From: a virus
Taxonomy: Duplodnaviria; Heunggongvirae; Uroviricota; Caudoviricetes
Direction: 5' to 3' (one strand)
DNA length: 7,660 nt
IMG/VR virus record: IMGVR_UViG_2703718802_000005
This document shows positions 2,160 to 7,660 of the stretch, in pieces. The notes under the pieces were generated by a model. It had not been told where the DNA came from. It made no database searches and saw only the letters and a list, made by a program, of their open reading frames with translations. The stretch's first letter is position 1; every line of letters starts with the position of its first letter. The position numbers were made by a program, and so were the translations under genes.

Positions 2160-2686
2160 TTTATGGCCTAAAATTTGAAAACATTAGTATCAATACTGAC
2201 CTCATCAGTCTGAGCATATATTGATAAAGTTTTTATGTTTACACTCAATAAATACCTTGCCAAACAACTAATATCGATGTCTACATTGCCATTCGACATG
2301 CTTACAATTTTTGTCAACAAGAAAGTGAATTTATATCAACGGTAAGAAGTAAACACGAGGACACCAAAACTAAATGTACACACTTTTGTGCTTTGTGTCC
2401 CCTGTGTGTACCCAAATGACAAACTGCAAGGAAATCTAGGCACACACTTATCTAACTTATTGATTTAAATGGTGCGATAATAGGAACAATACACATAGGC
2501 GATAAGCTTTGTTTTTGTTGCCTTTTTTATTGTTCATTTTTTATAGATACCCCCAAAAGTACCCCCATATCTTTTTCCGCCCCTGAAATTTGGTTGTTAT
2601 TCATACAGCATATCAGGCGGTAACGCTCTCCCTTTAACCCACTTATTGTATGATAGTGCTATCCCACAATAAGGAATCAGCCAGCC

Positions 2687-3046
2687 ATGAGAATGACCAG
2701 CCGTAAAAAAGAGATACTCAGTTATTTTGAGCCGGATAACCTAGAATGGGTGACAGGTGAGATTGGTGCGCCGCCGTTCGATGTGTCGGGCGTGGCCTAC
2801 CTGCTTCATGGCATGGTGTCGTTCGATAAGCGCCACCAGCTCGAATCAACCCGGCGCACACTGGAAAGCATGGTTGCTGGTGGACTGCTTGAGCGGGTGA
2901 CAGTGTATGAATCGCGTCAGGTACGGCGCGGCGGTGAGACTAACGCAACGGTCGTGCGCTACGGTTTACCCGGTCACTGCGCTGTTATGCGCGATACTGG
3001 CGGCGCTGATAACGCAATATCAGGCGAATACATGCGGGTCAGTTAA
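2687..3046 (+). CDS. Hypothetical small protein (119 aa), possible winged-helix DNA-binding protein
   Basis: Track ORF; ATG 2687 preceded by AAGGA about 12 nt upstream. Clearly more GC-rich than its flanks by eye. Segment TRRTLESMVAGGLLERVTVYE resembles a recognition helix plus wing (pattern-based guess). Stop TAA at 3044-3046 overlaps the convergent gene by 8 nt. Confidence 0.45.
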   Translation: MRMTSRKKEILSYFEPDNLEWVTGEIGAPPFDVSGVAYLLHGMVSFDKRHQLESTRRTLESMVAGGLLERVTVYESRQVRRGGETNATVVRYGLPGHCAVMRDTGGADNAISGEYMRVS

Positions 3047-3581
3047 GAGCCTGCAATCTGTCGTTAATGTTGTTCAGGTCGTAAACCCGGCGTTCAATAT
3101 CCAGCATCAGGAAATCGTGGATCTCGGCCTGTTCAGGATTATCAGACTCTCTGGCCTGTAAGAGCAATTCATTGTAACCATGCAAACCACCCGAATTTTC
3201 CGCCGGGGTAGTGCCCTTCCCGCGCAAACAGCTAACAGGCTGGATACTGGTATCATGTGTTTGCTTCTCCAGCACAACAAGGCAATCCCACCAGTCGCCA
3301 AAGTCATACGTGTAAACCAGCTTGTCACCCTCATTCTGGAGCGCCGCCCATAGTGGCGTGATTGCCGCGTTACCCATGCTTTCATCCTCACCCCATACGC
3401 GATACTCGCTACCTGGATCACCTTTACGCCCTTTCTCGAACATATACAGGTGTTCGTCATTCCAGCCAAAAGCTAACTGGATCACGGCATGAAGTTTACT
3501 AAAGGGGATTTGCTCTGGAACCAGCACACGCCGCCATATTGGTGGTTTGCTGTCTCGGATGGTTATCTTTATCTGGTACAT
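3039..3581 (-). CDS. pRiA4b ORF-3-like family protein (PF07929-like), 180 aa
   Basis: Track ORF; ATG at 3579-3581. N-terminal IKITIRDSKPPIWRRVLVP and central YTYDFGDWWD match the IWRR / YDFGDxW signature I recall for the plasmid pRiA4b ORF-3-like family. No strong Shine-Dalgarno; lies 43 bp downstream of the toxin-candidate gene on the same strand. Confidence 0.75.
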   Translation of the reverse strand: MYQIKITIRDSKPPIWRRVLVPEQIPFSKLHAVIQLAFGWNDEHLYMFEKGRKGDPGSEYRVWGEDESMGNAAITPLWAALQNEGDKLVYTYDFGDWWDCLVVLEKQTHDTSIQPVSCLRGKGTTPAENSGGLHGYNELLLQARESDNPEQAEIHDFLMLDIERRVYDLNNINDRLQALN

Positions 3582-3624
3582 GCGTCGTGAACCAATAGTG
3601 TACGTTTAGGTGGGTATTTTTCTG

Positions 3625-4059
3625 CTACTGACCAGGATAGAGCTGATGTGCCGGGTCAAGCCAGACAATATGGAATACATTACCGATGAAAAATCCATGT
3701 ATGCGACCATATTCATTGCGCGATATGGCAAATTGATAAGGTGTATAACTCTGAAACTGTTCATTCAAATGCTGAAATCCCTTAGGTTCAGATGTAGTTT
3801 GCCAATCAATCGGATGTGACTTCAACGAACCACCGCGATCGGTGGTGAACTCTCGTTCAGTCATAGTGGAAAGGTCTTTGAGGCGGTCTAACACCTTGCA
3901 AAAATAAACAGGATTCTGAGCGCTGAAAGTAAATTTCTCATGCGCCGCATCGATATACCGAAAAGAAAAGTTGATGGTCGTTATGCCTGAACCTGTTCCC
4001 CCAGGCACTATTTTTGTTTGCGAGGGTGCAATCTTCGACGCCCTGATTCTTTTCGCCAT
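3625..4059 (-). CDS. Toxin-candidate partner of the Panacea-domain antitoxin-like gene; 144 aa, fold not recognised
   Basis: Track ORF; ATG at 4057-4059 lies 2 nt after the TAA stop (4062-4064) of the upstream same-strand gene, a translationally coupled antitoxin-then-toxin layout. No family recognised by eye; notable C-terminal segment GRIHGFFIGNVFHIVWLDPAHQLY and N-terminal Gly-rich PGGTGSG. Confidence 0.6.
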   Translation of the reverse strand: MAKRIRASKIAPSQTKIVPGGTGSGITTINFSFRYIDAAHEKFTFSAQNPVYFCKVLDRLKDLSTMTEREFTTDRGGSLKSHPIDWQTTSEPKGFQHLNEQFQSYTPYQFAISRNEYGRIHGFFIGNVFHIVWLDPAHQLYPGQ

Positions 4060-4061
4060 AT

Positions 4062-4517
4062 TTAGGAAGCCATCGAACGATAAAACTCAGCCGTTACACT
4101 TTTATCAATAACATTCTTGCACGGCGCATCTGATGGAACCCCTTCACGGGCCTCCAGCCACGGCTTTTCTTGGTGCGTCATCTGCTCCAGCTCATAAGCT
4201 GTATAACCGCCAAATACCTCATAGATTTCCTTTAGATGCTTTGACACATTCGCAGGTAACTCAGGGCAGGCAATCTCTTCGTCTATTGAGCGCCATTTGT
4301 AATCTGCAAATCTGGTATACAAATCTCTGGCTACAGGGCCATGTACCCATGCTTCAAACTTGTCAGCAACCAGTTCTTCGCCATCATTCAGCGCCATGAA
4401 CCAAGCATCAGCATAGAACACCATTTTTTGCAGTTTCAGCGGCGTCATAACATCCCCATGCTCTTGAGCAAAGCAAAGCAGGTAATCCGCTACGCTGTTA
4501 AGGGTTGTAACTGCCAT
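4062..4517 (-). CDS. Panacea (DUF4065) domain protein, PanA/SocA-type antitoxin-like, 151 aa
   Basis: Track ORF 4062..4748 in frame; start placed at ATG 4515-4517 because AGGAG sits 8 nt upstream, whereas the ORF-opening ATG at 4748 has no ribosome-binding site. Product contains TPLKLQKMVFYADAWFMAL and FEAWVHGPVARDLYTRF, matching the conserved core I recall for Pfam PF13274 (DUF4065/Panacea; GepA-like 'phage-associated protein'). Confidence 0.8.
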   Translation of the reverse strand: MAVTTLNSVADYLLCFAQEHGDVMTPLKLQKMVFYADAWFMALNDGEELVADKFEAWVHGPVARDLYTRFADYKWRSIDEEIACPELPANVSKHLKEIYEVFGGYTAYELEQMTHQEKPWLEAREGVPSDAPCKNVIDKSVTAEFYRSMAS

Positions 4518-4838
4518 TATCCAATCTCCTGCCGTATGTTTTCGTCTATAACTGTCCACTACCGTTAATAATCGCATATAACCACGGGTATTGCCCATCG
4601 TAAAATGCCATTTAAAGATTCTGCGTGATGGCTCACCATCCACCGCGCAAGATACCCGGTGCGTTTGGCTGATAATCCGCAATTTGGTTGAAACCGTCCT
4701 GGAAACCTCAAGTTTGGAAACCAGCGACTTGCATCGTAGCTTTGCCATTCGGCGGTCATAGTTACTGCTATATCCCTTTATTGGCGAGACCTGCGAGAGG
4801 TTTTGTTGTTCGAATATATAAAGGTGAATAAAGGTAAT

Positions 4839-5024
4839 CTACCTGCGCGGCGCAGGCTTCTTCCACTGGTAGGCGGGTGATCGCATCATTTCGCGAAATT
4901 TGTCACGCCGGGCTATATTGGCATTAACTGAGCGTTCTATCTCCCGTTGATCTGCCGGGGTTAGCTGGTGGCCTTCGTGCTCCAGTTTGGCGGTGGTCAA
5001 TAAAGCTATTTCGCGTGGTGTCAT
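4839..5024 (-). CDS. Small hypothetical protein (61 aa), basic C-terminus
   Basis: Track ORF; GAGGG about 8 nt upstream of the ATG; same strand as the downstream antitoxin/toxin cassette. No family recognised. My manual count of the start codon here differs by 1 nt from the track; track coordinates used. Confidence 0.35.
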   Translation of the reverse strand: MTPREIALLTTAKLEHEGHQLTPADQREIERSVNANIARRDKFREMMRSPAYQWKKPAPRR

Positions 5025-5250
5025 ACGTCATACCCTCTGGAAGGATGAAACACGCCCGGATTAAATTTCATTTTTCGCGGGTATAAAAAAACGATGGGGC
5101 GGGCAGTCCCGGATAGTCAGGGCTGTAGAGATTTGACTACCCCCTCCCCACTGGATTCAGGTTACTGCTATTCCGTTAAGCGCTGCTTACGGGGATAGCT
5201 GCGTTGTGATTTTGACCATTCAGGTCGCCGCTATTTCCTCACCGATTGGG

Positions 5251-5280
5251 TGCTACGCGCGCGCGTACTTGTCCCGAAAT
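5251..5280. repeat. Copy 1 of dispersed ~25-bp repeat with palindromic alternating-CG core
   Basis: TGCTACGCGCGCGCGTACTTGTCCCGAAAT; core TACGCGCGCGCGTA is a perfect palindrome. Same motif recurs at 6643-6670 and 6931-6956. Confidence 0.85.
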
Positions 5281-5321
5281 ACCAGAAACCGCCAGCCAGA
5301 GGATGATTTCCCTCTGGTGGT

Positions 5322-5603
5322 CTACCTTTGCCTCTTGCCGCCATTTAACCGGAAGGCGTTACCGTTCGGTTGCGCTATCCCCATGCGGTGTTGCGTTTCG
5401 GTAACAGCTTTATGCAGGTCGCCAAATTCCTCAACCTTCACGGGCGGGCGCTTCACGTTCTCCAGACACGTTTCACGGCGGCGCTTTATCCATTCCCGAT
5501 CATCGTCCTCGCTGCATAACAGCATGACTTCCATCCATCGTGCGGCAGCTCTCCGGTATAGCCCTTTTGACTCCAGCTCTTCAGCTTTCCTGTCCCTTAT
5601 CAT
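5322..5603 (-). CDS. PerC-family transcriptional activator-like protein (93 aa)
   Basis: Track ORF; GAGG 5 nt upstream of ATG (5601-5603). Segment AEELESKGLYRRAAARWMEVM matches the conserved core I recall for PerC/Pch-family regulators (Pfam PF06069) found on enterobacterial mobile elements. The opposite-strand ORF 5206..5625 is judged spurious. Confidence 0.7.
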   Translation of the reverse strand: MIRDRKAEELESKGLYRRAAARWMEVMLLCSEDDDREWIKRRRETCLENVKRPPVKVEEFGDLHKAVTETQHRMGIAQPNGNAFRLNGGKRQR

Positions 5604-5640
5604 TTCTGCCTCTCAGATTATATAGATAAGCAAAAAGGTG

Positions 5641-5667
5641 TTGGTTCAGTTGGTTCAGTTGGTTCAA
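5641..5667. repeat. Three tandem 9-bp direct repeats TTGGTTCAG (third copy TTGGTTCAA); iteron/operator-like
   Basis: Directly visible at 5641-5649, 5650-5658 and 5659-5667, in the divergent intergenic region between the PerC-like gene (minus) and the RHH-like gene (plus). Confidence 0.85.
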
Positions 5668-5709
5668 TTTGTAAAGATCGTTGTTTTTATTATGTTTTTT
5701 CTAAAATAT

Positions 5710-5760
5710 TGAACCAACATCAACTCATTTTGAACCAACACAGCCCAGCTCTGAACCAAC
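5710..5760. repeat. Three copies of TGAACCAAC (reverse complement of the tandem repeat core) at exact 21-bp spacing
   Basis: Copies at 5710-5718, 5731-5739 and 5752-5760, i.e. two helical turns apart. Separated from the tandem array by an AT-rich spacer (5668-5708, includes GTTTTTATTATGTTTTTT). Confidence 0.85.
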
Positions 5761-5814
5761 AACACAGCGATAGCTTTGTGATTGGCCCGTTATTTTCTGG
5801 CTGATATTTGAGCG

Positions 5815-5845
5815 TATAACAGTGTTATACAGTGATATACTGTAT
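5815..5845. promoter_or_regulatory. Operator-like dyad upstream of the RHH-like gene
   Basis: Perfect inverted repeat ATACAGT-GATAT-ACTGTAT (5827-5845), preceded by a direct half-site repeat TATAACAGTG (5815-5824). Ends 18 nt upstream of the ATG at 5863, where an autoregulatory operator would sit. Confidence 0.4.
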
Positions 5846-5862
5846 GGATATTACTCACTGAT

Positions 5863-6318
5863 ATGGTCTTTGCAATGAGCAAATCTAATCTGGTCGCGTT
5901 CCGCATCCCATCTGAATTGCAGGATGAGTTTAATCGGTCTGTTCTCGCTTCTGGAGGGGATAAAACCTCCTGGCTTGTTGATGCGATTCGCATGAAGCTG
6001 GGACAGCCGGAAAAGTCTATTGATTCACGAATGCTTGGGCTGGTGGAGCGCATGGAAAAAGCTGCTGCGTCGCTTATTGCCGGAAAGCCGAACATCCCAC
6101 CAAAGCCATATAACGAAACGGCAGTTATAAAGATCATTGCCGATACCATCCGACAGGGATTTGATAATGGGCGTGTGATAGCTGAACGGATCAATGAAGC
6201 AGGCTATCAAACAAAAGCTGGTAAAGCGTGGGATAAAGATATTTACAGCGCGTGGAAGCGTCAGGGAAGCAATGCTGAAAAGTTAAAAGCGGTGATTGAT
6301 TGTAAGGTCAGCGTATAA
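5863..6318 (+). CDS. Hypothetical protein with N-terminal ribbon-helix-helix-like DNA-binding region (151 aa)
   Basis: Track ORF. N-terminus VAFRIPSELQDEFNRSV...KTSWLVDAIRMKL has the strand-helix-helix pattern of CopG/Arc-type RHH domains (pattern-based). Weak Shine-Dalgarno, so start is uncertain between ATG 5863 and ATG 5875. Opposite-strand ORFs 5790..6194 and 6025..6210 are judged spurious. Confidence 0.55.
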   Translation: MVFAMSKSNLVAFRIPSELQDEFNRSVLASGGDKTSWLVDAIRMKLGQPEKSIDSRMLGLVERMEKAAASLIAGKPNIPPKPYNETAVIKIIADTIRQGFDNGRVIAERINEAGYQTKAGKAWDKDIYSAWKRQGSNAEKLKAVIDCKVSV

Positions 6319-6397
6319 ACATGAGTGCCCATTGGAAAGCTGCTTGGGCCAATACCTTTATACACCAGCAGGTGGTGACGATAGGTGAGGATCAGGA

Positions 6398-6619
6398 ATG
6401 AAAGGCAGAACGCCACACATTGAACATCAAGCCAACCACTTCTCGGATGTTCGCAATGAGATGATTGCCATTCGCGGTGATATGCACGGCTTGGAGCGTC
6501 GAATTATTGATAAGATTGATGAAAATAGAGATAAGGCCAGTGAAAATCAAAAGTGGATCATCGGCCTGTTGATTTTATCAATTCTTATCCCGCTACTTAT
6601 CGCATTGGTCACAAAATGA
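6398..6619 (+). CDS. Small tail-anchored membrane protein (73 aa), XhlA/holin-like architecture
   Basis: Track ORF; GAGGA about 6 nt upstream of the ATG. Charged N-terminal region followed by a single C-terminal hydrophobic helix WIIGLLILSILIPLLIALV. Assignment is by architecture only, not sequence family. Confidence 0.55.
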   Translation: MKGRTPHIEHQANHFSDVRNEMIAIRGDMHGLERRIIDKIDENRDKASENQKWIIGLLILSILIPLLIALVTK

Positions 6620-6642
6620 ATATCCAATGTGTATGCTGTCGA

Positions 6643-6670
6643 TGCTACGCGCGCGTACTTGTCGCAAAAT
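6643..6670. repeat. Copy 2 of dispersed ~25-bp repeat
   Basis: TGCTACGCGCGCGTACTTGTCGCAAAAT; palindromic core TACGCGCGCGTA. Begins 24 nt after the stop of the 6398..6619 gene. Confidence 0.85.
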
Positions 6671-6901
6671 ATCAGGCAAAGGCCAGATTCAGAACGTCGT
6701 GATAACCACCAGCACAACATGAGATGTCATGTAACGCGATTTATCACGTCAGATACATGTGATTGGTGTACCCGCATAAAACATTGTCATAGCGCGTCCT
6801 GTGCGCATATACGCCGATAATCAACACATCACCACCACTCTGTCTCATGTAGAGAACACTTTTATGGTATCCCCCGCCATCGTGTGCGTACTGGTCGGAC
6901 G

Positions 6902-6925
6902 CAGTTGCAAAAAATTTTGCAACTG
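6902..6925. repeat. Perfect 11-bp inverted repeat CAGTTGCAAAA-AA-TTTTGCAACTG
   Basis: Directly visible; no T-run follows on either strand, so more likely a protein-binding dyad than a terminator. Immediately precedes repeat copy 3. Confidence 0.8.
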
Positions 6926-6930
6926 ATACC

Positions 6931-6956
6931 CCTCGCGCGCGTACTTGTCTCGAAAT
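6931..6956. repeat. Copy 3 of dispersed ~25-bp repeat
   Basis: CCTCGCGCGCGTACTTGTCTCGAAAT. Degenerate relatives GTGCGTACTGGTC (about 6884-6896) and GCGCGTACTGTAAC (about 7017-7030) lie nearby. Confidence 0.8.
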
Positions 6957-7142
6957 TGGTGTTTTGCTGTGGCAGTGATATCAGAAAAATCTTCCTGTTT
7001 CACATAAAGCGGATATGCGCGTACTGTAACGACCCCATCAACTGGGAGCGGATTTGAAATCCCGACCCAAGCTATGTACCAAATGCCATGTCTTGGATAT
7101 ATGATGATTGCCATTCTAAACAAAGCTAAAGGGAGGGTTGGT

Positions 7143-7493
7143 GTGAATGCTCAGGCTGTCATCATGGTTTTACTTGGTCTGATTGTCGCAAAACTATATC
7201 CAGACTGGTGGAAAGGGGTATTAGCAACTGTCGCCATCTATTTGCTTTTATCCGTCGTTAAGCGATCGTTCGTTAAGACCGTAAATCAAGCAAAACGTTT
7301 CTCATTTAAGAATTTAATAAACTATATTACTGGGCTTATTTTTTGCCTTTCAATTTTGATCGCTTCAGCTTTTTTGCCCGTATCAATAGCTAATTTTTTT
7401 GGCGCACCATATGAGGTAGGTTATCTATTCTCTGTTTTTTGTCTTGTTCTTTCCCTTCTTTACCTATGGATGAGAGCAAAGAACAAAAATTAG
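7143..7493 (+). CDS. Hypothetical multi-pass membrane protein (about 116 aa from the preferred start)
   Basis: Track ORF 7074..7493. Preferred start is in-frame GTG at 7143, preceded by GGAGG (7132-7136) with a 6-nt spacer; alternatives are ATG 7074 (no SD) and ATG 7164. AT-rich; product has about four hydrophobic helices (AVIMVLLGLIVA, VLATVAIYLLLSVV, ITGLIFCLSILIASAFL, YLFSVFCLVLSLLYLW). Stop TAG at 7491-7493. Confidence 0.5.
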   Translation: MNAQAVIMVLLGLIVAKLYPDWWKGVLATVAIYLLLSVVKRSFVKTVNQAKRFSFKNLINYITGLIFCLSILIASAFLPVSIANFFGAPYEVGYLFSVFCLVLSLLYLWMRAKNKN

Positions 7494-7660
7494 CCATCCA
7501 TGGCTAACCAGTTATTGAGATTCTTTTTGTGATGCCTGTGCGACTCTGGTGAGCGATTGTGTGACCGTACTGATCGCTCTGTCATATGCTGTGCTACCTT
7601 TTGGCGTATTTGCCAGACGTAACAAGGCATTTCGGTAAGCGTAAACTGACCGCCGTATGT

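Follow-up and report, generated by a model that had tools for sequence, protein, structure and literature searches.

The DNA described here is a stretch of 7,660 nucleotides from the IMG/VR virus record IMGVR_UViG_2703718802_000005 (Caudoviricetes), and this whole stretch is referred to below as the window. A short repeat array in it fills the space between two divergently transcribed genes, one for a PerC-family regulator and the other for a 151-amino-acid (aa) protein. In the closest complete genomes this region belongs to a satellite of the phage-inducible chromosomal island (PICI) type, which is integrated at the tRNA-Thr gene thrW of Escherichia coli and encodes a primase-helicase, designated Pri-Rep. 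On sequence comparison, and with a probability of roughly 0.7, the array appears to be a complete origin-type unit of this satellite, its 9-mers being the cognate sites of Pri-Rep.

Anatomy of the repeat array

Three copies of GTTGGTTCA are arranged head-to-tail at 5640-5666 (period 9, 100% match). They form the tandem arm, in which three iterons read TGAACCAAC on the minus strand at 9-bp spacing and which is nearly or fully invariant in seven genera. The arm is followed by an AT-rich centre of 43 nt at 5667-5709 (84% A+T), the presumed DNA-unwinding segment, and then by a phased arm at 5710-5760, which is inverted relative to the tandem arm and carries TGAACCAAC on the plus strand at 5710-5718, 5731-5739, and 5752-5760, with an exact 21-bp spacing and spacers of 12 nt each. 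Three minus-strand and three plus-strand copies of TGAACCAAC therefore oppose each other around an AT-rich segment, as in origins (oris) of PICIs and of Staphylococcus aureus pathogenicity islands (SaPIs). A preliminary description of the window had reported the same layout, namely three head-to-tail copies (given there as TTGGTTCAG at 5641-5667, which is the same array with its register shifted by one base), an AT-rich stretch of about 40 bp, and three reverse-complement copies at 5710, 5731, and 5752 with 21-bp phasing, and all three parts were recovered here. A TTTACAAAT motif, conserved among the distal units described below, adjoins the tandem arm on the side of the centre.

When one mismatch was allowed, the 9-mer had 11 matches in the window against an expectation of 2.0 +/- 1.4, and none of 200 dinucleotide shuffles reached 11. 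Exact matches numbered seven, of which six are in the array and one is at 736-744. A consensus scan of positions 5500-5950 for sigma-70 promoters and terminators gave nothing that reached threshold, so that no consensus promoter or terminator overlaps the array, and an Rfam search of the whole window at E<=0.1 returned no match. The array folds favourably as a single strand (z -4.7), a result that we regard as trivial. An explanation in terms of an RNA or a hairpin was rejected, since there was no Rfam match and a hairpin would account neither for the runs of repeats in the same orientation nor for the covariation with a protein that is reported below.

A twin array beside the Pri-Rep gene

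Several complete E. coli chromosomes contain the window segment 5300-6320 at 100% identity, and the window as a whole matches that of strain F8 at 95% identity across 95% of its length. The exact 9-mer occurs 12 times in 48 kb of F8, where 0.4 copies were expected, and 12 times in 31 kb of strain 2273-PO3; in both strains all copies fall within two arrays. One is the array of the window, termed the distal unit. The other, termed the proximal unit, is its mirror image and begins 25 nt past the stop codon of the 918-aa Pri-Rep protein. The window array is about 6.2 kb from this stop codon in F8 and about 10.5 kb from it in 2273-PO3, and the place immediately 3' of rep, where a PICI or SaPI ori is expected, is held by the proximal twin and not by the window array. 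The preliminary description had correctly noted that the window itself holds no initiator or primase gene and had suggested that one be sought beyond it; in the nearest complete genomes the gene was found about 6 kb past the window.

The two arrays have in common an identical 44-bp block, AAAAGG-(GTTGGTTCA)x3-ATTTGTAAAG, an AT-rich centre of 43 nt, and three inverted copies. They differ in their flanks, which are unrelated, in the sequence of the centre, and in the phased arm, where the spacing is 11/21 in the proximal unit and 21/21 in the window. Shared sites amid unrelated flanks, distinct centre sequences, and different spacing point to conserved binding sites rather than to a recent block duplication. 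Similarity between the arrays starts just 7 nt ahead of the first iteron, and no remnant of a primase gene lies beside the window array. As a separate observation, a TCACA(Y)R(Y)G-like motif, often in the form of the palindrome CACATGTG or CACGTG, was seen in the stretch of approximately 25 nt that separates the first tandem iteron from the Pri-Rep stop codon; it accompanies every iteron type in the survey described below (loci L003-L064) and is missing from the distal unit of the window.

The 918-aa protein has the domains Zn_Ribbon_Prim, Toprim_3, and DUF927. Its first ~360 residues (7-361) are 33% identical to the primase domain of the P4 alpha protein (E 2e-41), and its DUF927 core matches PDB 8tch, a 'Pathogenicity island protein' (E 1.4e-11), as well as PDB 5dgk, an 'Active helicase' (the SCCmec Cch helicase). 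No similarity was detectable between the 918-aa protein and the D5-type Pri-Rep of the PICI EcCICFT073. From these matches Pri-Rep is predicted to be a primase fused to a helicase of the SaPI-Rep type (DUF927). This Rep-type helicase initiator is encoded within the same element as the window array, between the same attachment (att) sites.

Iteron type and the Pri-Rep C-terminus

A scan of the Enterobacterales, with one genome per species, yielded 77 loci encoding relatives of Pri-Rep (numbered with the prefix L). The array-bearing set consisted of the 57 loci with at least three iteron copies after the Pri-Rep stop codon. Nearly all of the approximately 60 full-length homologues are followed by an array of 4-13 repeats that begins 25-50 nt past the stop codon, and these arrays follow a constant grammar of two to three tandem copies at 9-bp spacing, an AT-rich centre of about 43 nt, and inverted copies at 11/21-bp spacing. 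The iterons themselves are of eight types, namely TGAACCAAC, TGAGACAAC, TAACCCGT, TGAACCGAC, AAACCGAC, TACCCGAC, TAACCCAC, and TTATCCCA.

Covariation between iteron type and protein sequence was tested over 53 loci with an unbiased scan of 756 alignment columns. Iteron type was found to follow the last ~35 residues of Pri-Rep, in particular residues ~889-903. All 36 loci of the TGAACCAAC type encode RG[YF]QRKSPR[IV] at this place, though the rest of the protein drops to 54% identity, and all five loci of the TGAGACAAC type encode RGYQGRVRE, though their helicase body is up to 95% identical to that of TGAACCAAC-type proteins. When pairs were matched for a body identity of 0.7-0.8, the last 45 residues were 70% identical in pairs of the same iteron type and 50% identical in pairs of different type. 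Only seven of the 756 columns fully separate the TGAACCAAC from the TGAGACAAC type, and five of these correspond to residues 891-896; when all eight types were taken together, residues 820-903 accounted for 19 of the 20 columns with the highest information. Each of the eight iteron types has its own C-terminal motif, so that Rep and ori are matched as in the known systems, here by covariation. The covariation is strong but indirect evidence for recognition of these repeats by the Pri-Rep C-terminus.

Organization and conservation of the origin-type units

Two mirror-image units are contiguous in 28 of the 57 array-bearing loci, where they span about 260 bp with a typical orientation of ---+++++-+++. 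Ten loci resemble E. coli in having, besides a proximal unit, a distal one at a distance of 0.9-9 kb, and in the remaining 19 a proximal unit alone was detected in the available sequence; two of these 19, L042 and L049, do have one more unit within 0.2-0.5 kb. In the compact relatives L009 and L011, the Pri-Rep gene, the double array, PerC, a 61-aa gene, and a pRiA4b gene follow one another in this order, and in L004 PerC lies directly beside the tandem arm of the second unit, as it does in the window. From such comparisons the E. coli layout looks like the compact arrangement with about 6 kb of late-gene cargo between the units.

Eight distal units, from Escherichia, Rosenbergiella, Chimaeribacter, Pantoea, Cedecea, Leclercia, and Serratia, were compared with one another. 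Their mean pairwise identity is 91% in the iterons, 70% in the centre, and 45% in the inter-iteron spacers and 60-nt flanks. The centre is exactly 43 nt long in all eight, with 72-88% A+T, and the 9-mers retain their phase across genera while the spacers drift. The difference between iterons and spacers or flanks, together with the invariant length of the centre, indicates purifying selection and not decay. Lack of conservation in homologous loci had been named in the preliminary description as an outcome that would speak against a functional array; the repeats are conserved in the seven genera. A TATATA-like box is conserved beside the tandem arm in distal units and is absent from the proximal array.

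In Yersinia pekkanenii (L034), three array regions were observed within 6 kb (8154-8414, 12736-12996, and 13917-14207), apparently with a duplicated segment, and in an Erwinia metagenome-assembled genome (L062, 3988-4050) the tandem arm has grown to seven copies. Both iteron number and unit number are therefore plastic. Locus L005, on contig CACSKA010000004.1 labelled Chryseobacterium sp. 18061, encodes a Pri-Rep 79% identical to that of E. coli and carries TGAACCAAC double arrays. The label is that of a Bacteroidota species, and an Enterobacterales genome that contaminated the assembly or was mislabelled is the most likely source.

At a coverage of at least 80%, the 3' end of the Pri-Rep gene with the proximal array was found in 328 of 5,426 complete E. 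coli genomes (about 6%). The module of PerC, array, and 151-aa gene was found at the same coverage in 115 complete E. coli genomes, with partial matches in 637.

Host element at thrW

In F8 and 2273-PO3 the region is an island at thrW, beside proA. Reading from the tRNA gene, the order is a P4-type integrase, AlpA (PF05930), an AntA/B-like protein, a DUF4222 protein, Ash, and several small open reading frames (ORFs), followed by the 918-aa 'TOPRIM and DUF927' protein, P22-type ejection proteins (Inj_translocase), and several hypothetical genes. The 73-aa and 151-aa genes of the window come next, on the opposite strand, and then the array, past which lie PerC, the 61-aa gene, a Panacea/SocA pair, a pRiA4b-ORF3 gene, and a 119-aa gene. 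The satellite integrase carries an Arm-DNA-bind_3 domain. The element measures about 18 kb in F8 and about 9 kb in a deleted copy in strain ET729.

The distal end of the satellite (attR) was located by aligning the deletion strain ET729 with the window. It is a degenerate form of the 21-nt thrW att core, AATGGTGC-GATAATAGGA, at window positions 2468-2485, and the switch from island to chromosome in ET729 coincides with it. Exact att repeats in F8 consist only of the outermost pair, 32.7 kb apart, the inner attR being degenerate. The start of the ET729 island DNA at the degenerate core places the array inside one att-bounded element of about 18 kb. This satellite occupies the window from about 2468 to 7660 and runs past its right edge, and positions 1-2467 are part of another island next to it, in which the ORFs of 462 aa and 277 aa fall into no Pfam family. 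The thrW locus as a whole is a mosaic of islands and insertion sequence (IS) elements. A dedicated att site and integrase, AlpA beside int, the gene order with pri-rep farther downstream, mostly unidirectional genes, an incomplete set of virion genes, and a size in the range of about 10-20 kb agree with a Gram-negative PICI as host element.

Several further observations were made on the element. About 20 nt inside attR, at window positions 2507-2544, a 15-mer, CTTTTTTATTGTTC, is repeated in tandem 2.6 times; these repeats may serve as arm-type sites for the integrase or as other sites of recombination directionality. The ET729 copy (L083, 21321-21900) is a natural deletion derivative that has lost Pri-Rep, the proximal array, and the ejection genes; it retains int, AlpA, Ash, and the PerC/array/151-aa module, is bounded directly by thrW and the chromosomal flank, and has fragments of the flanking genes annotated at the deletion joint. 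The P22-type ejection/injection genes sit exactly between both origin units in F8 (L002, 27756-31297) and in 2273-PO3 (L001, 17721-22889). This late-gene cargo varies by strain, 2273-PO3 adding a lytic transglycosylase-domain protein, and ejection proteins are unusual as 'late zone' cargo for a PICI. A 144-aa ORF and a 228-aa Panacea/SocA-domain ORF at window positions 3625-4748 form a pair of about 1.2 kb that is present in the window, F8, and ET729 and absent in 2273-PO3, where the pRiA4b gene and the 61-aa gene are only about 120 bp apart; the pair looks like an inserted toxin-antitoxin or defence-type cargo module of the satellite.

Neighbouring genes

The array fills the 271-bp intergenic region between the divergent PerC and 151-aa genes. 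The PerC-family gene (5322-5603, minus strand; Pfam PF06069, E 1.2e-30) is transcribed away from the tandem arm, and the gene for the 151-aa protein (5875-6318, plus strand; a 147/151-aa protein in the RefSeq annotation) is transcribed away from the phased arm. A separate set of operator-like repeats, TAACAGTGTTATACAGTGATATACTGT, at 5817-5843 is not composed of iterons and lies about 30 nt upstream of the 151-aa gene.

Homologues of the 151-aa protein, 30-79% identical to it (64-68% when near full length), occur in other genera with or without an iteron array upstream. In L013, L020, L021, L026, and L060 a distal unit lies 60-70 bp upstream of such a homologue, and the homologues in L022, L024, and L040 have no upstream iteron array and retain a proximal motif of their own, TGTCTTAC in two or three copies. 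Most of the homologues examined carry a proximal motif, which in most genera consists of two to three tandem copies of TGTCTTAC whether or not an array is present; where both occur, the motif sits between the array and the start codon. Repeats of this kind were observed upstream of the homologues in L020, L021, L022, L024, L026, L040, and L060. Variants are ACAGTGTTATACAGTGATATACTGT (ACAGTG/ACTGT repeats) in E. coli and in Serratia (L061), and three to four copies of ATCCGTTAT in Enterobacter (L004, ~19990-20080). The pattern suggests that the 151-aa protein may be an autoregulated DNA-binding protein whose specificity differs between variants.

The 151-aa protein has no Pfam family even at E<=10, so no DNA-binding family is assignable to it from that search; in PHROGs it has only a weak match to phrog_30270, of unknown function, and its single-sequence AlphaFold model, with a pLDDT of 39, is unusable. 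The label 'RHH-like' that the preliminary description had given to it is neither confirmed nor refuted by Pfam, PHROGs, or the AlphaFold model. Both PerC and the 151-aa gene are missing from many array-bearing loci, and arrays occur without either gene within 10 kb. A partition centromere of the ParR-parC type was also considered for the array and was rejected, since no ParA/ParM NTPase is annotated in the element and the arrays are not linked to a small protein.

Interpretation of the window array

In anatomy, in the type of its initiator, and in its host element the array corresponds to a PICI-type ori; the one defining feature that it lacks is adjacency to rep. The proposal in the preliminary description that iterons flanking an easily melted AT-rich segment make up a satellite replication origin is supported by the pairing with Pri-Rep, the twin array, the covariation, and the grammar of PICI oris, with the refinement that the window unit is the distal of two. 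The array is very probably a cognate site array for Pri-Rep, as the covariation with the C-terminus suggests. Conservation of the whole origin grammar, beyond the binding sites alone, favours a functional origin unit; the odds that the distal unit would initiate replication itself are about even.

In the proposed mechanism, Pri-Rep would combine a Zn-ribbon/TOPRIM primase like that of P4 alpha, a self-loading helicase of the SaPI-Rep/Cch type, and a C-terminal DNA-reading segment at about residues 889-903. After induction, Pri-Rep hexamers would bind the tandem and phased arms, as SaPI Rep does, melt the 43-bp AT-rich centre without ATP, and load themselves as helicase, after which the fused primase would prime synthesis. 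The element would offer two mirror-oriented units for this purpose, one after the Pri-Rep stop codon and one across the captured late genes, and in about half of the relatives the two would form one contiguous origin of about 260 bp like the validated EcCICFT073 ori.

Several points weigh against this reading. The window unit is not beside the rep gene, where all characterised PICI and SaPI oris lie. ET729 retains the array despite the loss of Pri-Rep and the proximal array, so that it is an orphan in some genomes, and 19 of the 57 relatives show a proximal unit alone within 10 kb, so that a distal unit appears dispensable for some elements. Every distal unit that was recovered is of the TGAACCAAC type, and covariation of the second unit with other types is seen for adjacent double units only. 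A profile of the C-terminal 150 residues of Pri-Rep found no significant relative among PDB sequences that would indicate the fold of a DNA reader. The presence of Pri-Rep in the genome of the window itself is probable from the nearest complete relatives and from the right end of the window, which enters an ejection-protein gene, and binding, melting, and initiation by Pri-Rep are what we infer from analogy.

The alternative that shares most of this evidence is that the array would bind Pri-Rep without initiating, as an auxiliary or control site acting in cis; we consider this rather unlikely. The site might be a looping partner of the proximal unit like the crr of P4, a copy-control site acting by handcuffing or titration like P1 incA and F incC, or a place from which Pri-Rep might modulate the adjacent PerC and 151-aa promoters. 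Its position agrees with the two-cluster layout of P4, in which crr is 3' of alpha and ori is 4.7 kb away, and the absence of a second unit within 10 kb in 19 of 57 relatives, the location in a divergent intergenic region, and the TATATA-like box that only distal units have beside the tandem arm would all fit. A pure titration site, however, would not need the full origin grammar that the distal unit holds, with its invariant 43-nt centre and the TTTACAAAT motif; no sigma-70 promoter overlapped the array in the consensus scan; and handcuffing is established for initiators of the RepA type, whereas the initiator here is a helicase-type Rep.

The preliminary description had offered a multi-site operator for the divergent PerC-like and RHH-like promoters as its alternative, in which the array would be bound by the 151-aa protein or by PerC. 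The 271-bp divergent intergenic setting and the distal units 60-70 bp upstream of 151-aa homologues in several genera would suit an operator, yet no divergent genes flank the same array where it stands beside Pri-Rep, many loci have arrays, of every type, with no homologue of either gene within 10 kb, and the 151-aa homologues in L022, L024, and L040 have their own TGTCTTAC repeats and no array. The existence of the 151-aa gene without arrays and with proximal repeats of its own indicates that the iterons are not the conserved operator of this protein. Iteron type also tracks residues of Pri-Rep and not the 151-aa protein or PerC, and neither the family searches nor the model (pLDDT 39) give the 151-aa protein a DNA-binding family. 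An operator is accordingly very improbable, while bound Pri-Rep could conceivably have a secondary effect on both divergent promoters. Just as little weight is given to a non-functional relic, either half of a split ancestral double origin or the leftover of a decayed tandem element. The split state does look derived, as the units are contiguous in 28 of 57 relatives, ET729 shows that the region tolerates large deletions, and islands and IS elements make up a mosaic at thrW; but split units in seven genera retain their iterons (91%) against drifted spacers and flanks (45%) with an invariant centre length, no primase-gene remnant stands beside the array, and the junction between array and PerC is the same as in compact double origins such as L004. 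The tandem-element version was rejected on the absence of a primase remnant and the ancestral state of the array-PerC junction.

Beyond the reading of the array as a complete origin-type unit, we raise, as a tentative and rather speculative possibility, that the satellite has a genuinely bipartite origin in which Pri-Rep would mediate looping between mirror units lying side by side or up to about 10 kb apart, so that the logic of P4 ori and crr would have been rebuilt independently on a SaPI-type helicase. The distal unit might then link the initiation of replication to expression of both the 151-aa gene and PerC, the virulence regulator, and the eight pairs of iteron and C-terminus might form a natural incompatibility code that lets several satellites share a cell.

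The underlying kind of element is known, and the finding refines existing knowledge without introducing a new principle; the split two-unit layout and the eight-type recognition series appear to be the new elements. PICI-type satellites mobilise virulence and defence genes at high frequency, and the replication module is among the features that define them. If the window array is an origin-type unit, the rule that ori lies immediately 3' of rep would be incomplete for a widespread family of enterobacterial satellites, in which a full second unit would lie kilobases away, beyond the cargo, and the split layout would matter for the annotation of satellites and the design of minimal replicons. 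The eight iteron types, matched to a few residues (about 889-903) in a primase-helicase that is conserved elsewhere, would then constitute a testable recognition code of SaPI-type Reps, with a bearing on how co-resident satellites avoid cross-talk.

Comparison with known systems

The preliminary description had suggested a comparison with origins of P4-like satellites and PICI-type islands, and these proved to be the closest known systems. The Rep-ori systems of SaPI1, SaPI5, and SaPIbov1 have been described by Qiao et al. 2022 (PMC9371898) and by Ubeda et al., cited therein. SaPI Rep is a self-loading helicase that reads iterons with a C-terminal winged-helix domain, its ori, directly after rep, consists of 6-12 iterons that are divided equally between the two sides of an AT-rich region and point in opposed directions, and both binding and melting of the ori are ATP-independent (PMC9371898). 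Among the E. coli PICIs, of which PerC is a known accessory gene, the rep-ori of EcCICFT073 supports plasmid maintenance, and PICI-encoded PerC homologues were noted in the same work (Fillol-Salom et al. 2018, PMC6092414). A recognised class of Gram-negative PICIs has primases of the DUF927/Zn-ribbon kind together with captured phage genes in a 'late zone' (PMC10111431).

The window array resembles these systems in its short iterons, set in two opposed groups around an AT-rich centre, and its initiator would resemble theirs as a self-loading Rep helicase fused to a primase, as in SaPI5 and the E. coli PICIs. The helicase core is homologous to 8tch, a staphylococcal island protein, and to Cch (5dgk), and the C-terminus of the initiator would set iteron specificity, as the covariation suggests here. 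The host element likewise has int, alpA, mostly unidirectional genes, PerC cargo, and captured late genes. It differs in that the window unit is 6-10 kb from rep, with its twin in the immediate 3' position, and in that its iterons are 9-mers (TGAACCAAC), whereas SaPIs are described with penta- or hexanucleotides.

The EcCICFT073 ori starts about 14 nt past the pri-rep stop codon and consists of CTGTCTACC repeats in a mirrored double layout whose outer ends carry the tandem 9-bp copies. The layout is thus shared with the double units described here, with a different iteron, and the EcCICFT073 Pri-Rep is a D5_N/DUF5906/Pox_D5 protein, another allele. A PerC-family gene was also observed about 0.7 kb downstream of this ori in CFT073 (L081, 16960-17208), after a small ORF and a gene for a single-stranded DNA-binding protein (SSB); the order of ori and then PerC is found again with Pri-Rep alleles that are unrelated. 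The searchable literature, of which coverage was partial, yielded no account of a PICI ori that is split or duplicated.

In iteron plasmids, additional initiator-binding arrays lie outside the main origin, as in P1 incA, F incC, and the alpha, beta, and gamma origins of R6K, and the initiator pairs such arrays in cis or in trans. The initiators of these plasmids are winged-helix proteins of the RepA or pi type without helicase activity, and the control arrays have no origin-like AT-rich centre. The second array described here differs in being a full mirror copy of the origin unit.

P4 features were taken from the annotation of GenBank NC_001609. There, crr consists of two 120-bp repeats with five alpha-binding type-1 octamers each, directly 3' of the alpha gene, and ori, which comprises six type-1 octamers, is located at a distance of 4.7 kb, where the ORF88/vis and sid genes diverge. 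The thrW satellite likewise has two clusters of one repeat, the probable initiator-binding site, kilobases apart, with one cluster directly 3' of the primase-helicase gene and the other in the intergenic space from which a small regulator gene and another operon diverge. The N-terminal Zn-ribbon/TOPRIM primase domains are homologous, and both elements have a P4-type integrase and a gene of the AlpA/Vis family. The differences concern the helicase, which is of the DUF927 (MCM/Cch-like) kind here and of the D5-type superfamily 3 (SF3) in P4, so that the initiator is not of the alpha type; the repeat, which is TGAACCAAC here and the type-1 octamer TGTTCACC in P4; and the arrangement, a symmetric 3+3 array around a 43-bp AT-rich centre as against 120-bp direct repeats. 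No sid, delta, psu, or epsilon gene is annotated in the F8 or 2273-PO3 element, and an Rfam search of the window found no C4/isrK RNA. Given its helicase module, its repeat sequence, and the absence of sid, delta, and psu, the satellite is not a member of the P4 family. If the window array is an origin-type unit, the occupation of positions like those of P4 ori and crr by a system with a different helicase would suggest a convergent solution, and the long-unexplained requirement for P4 crr in cis would become approachable in a second system.

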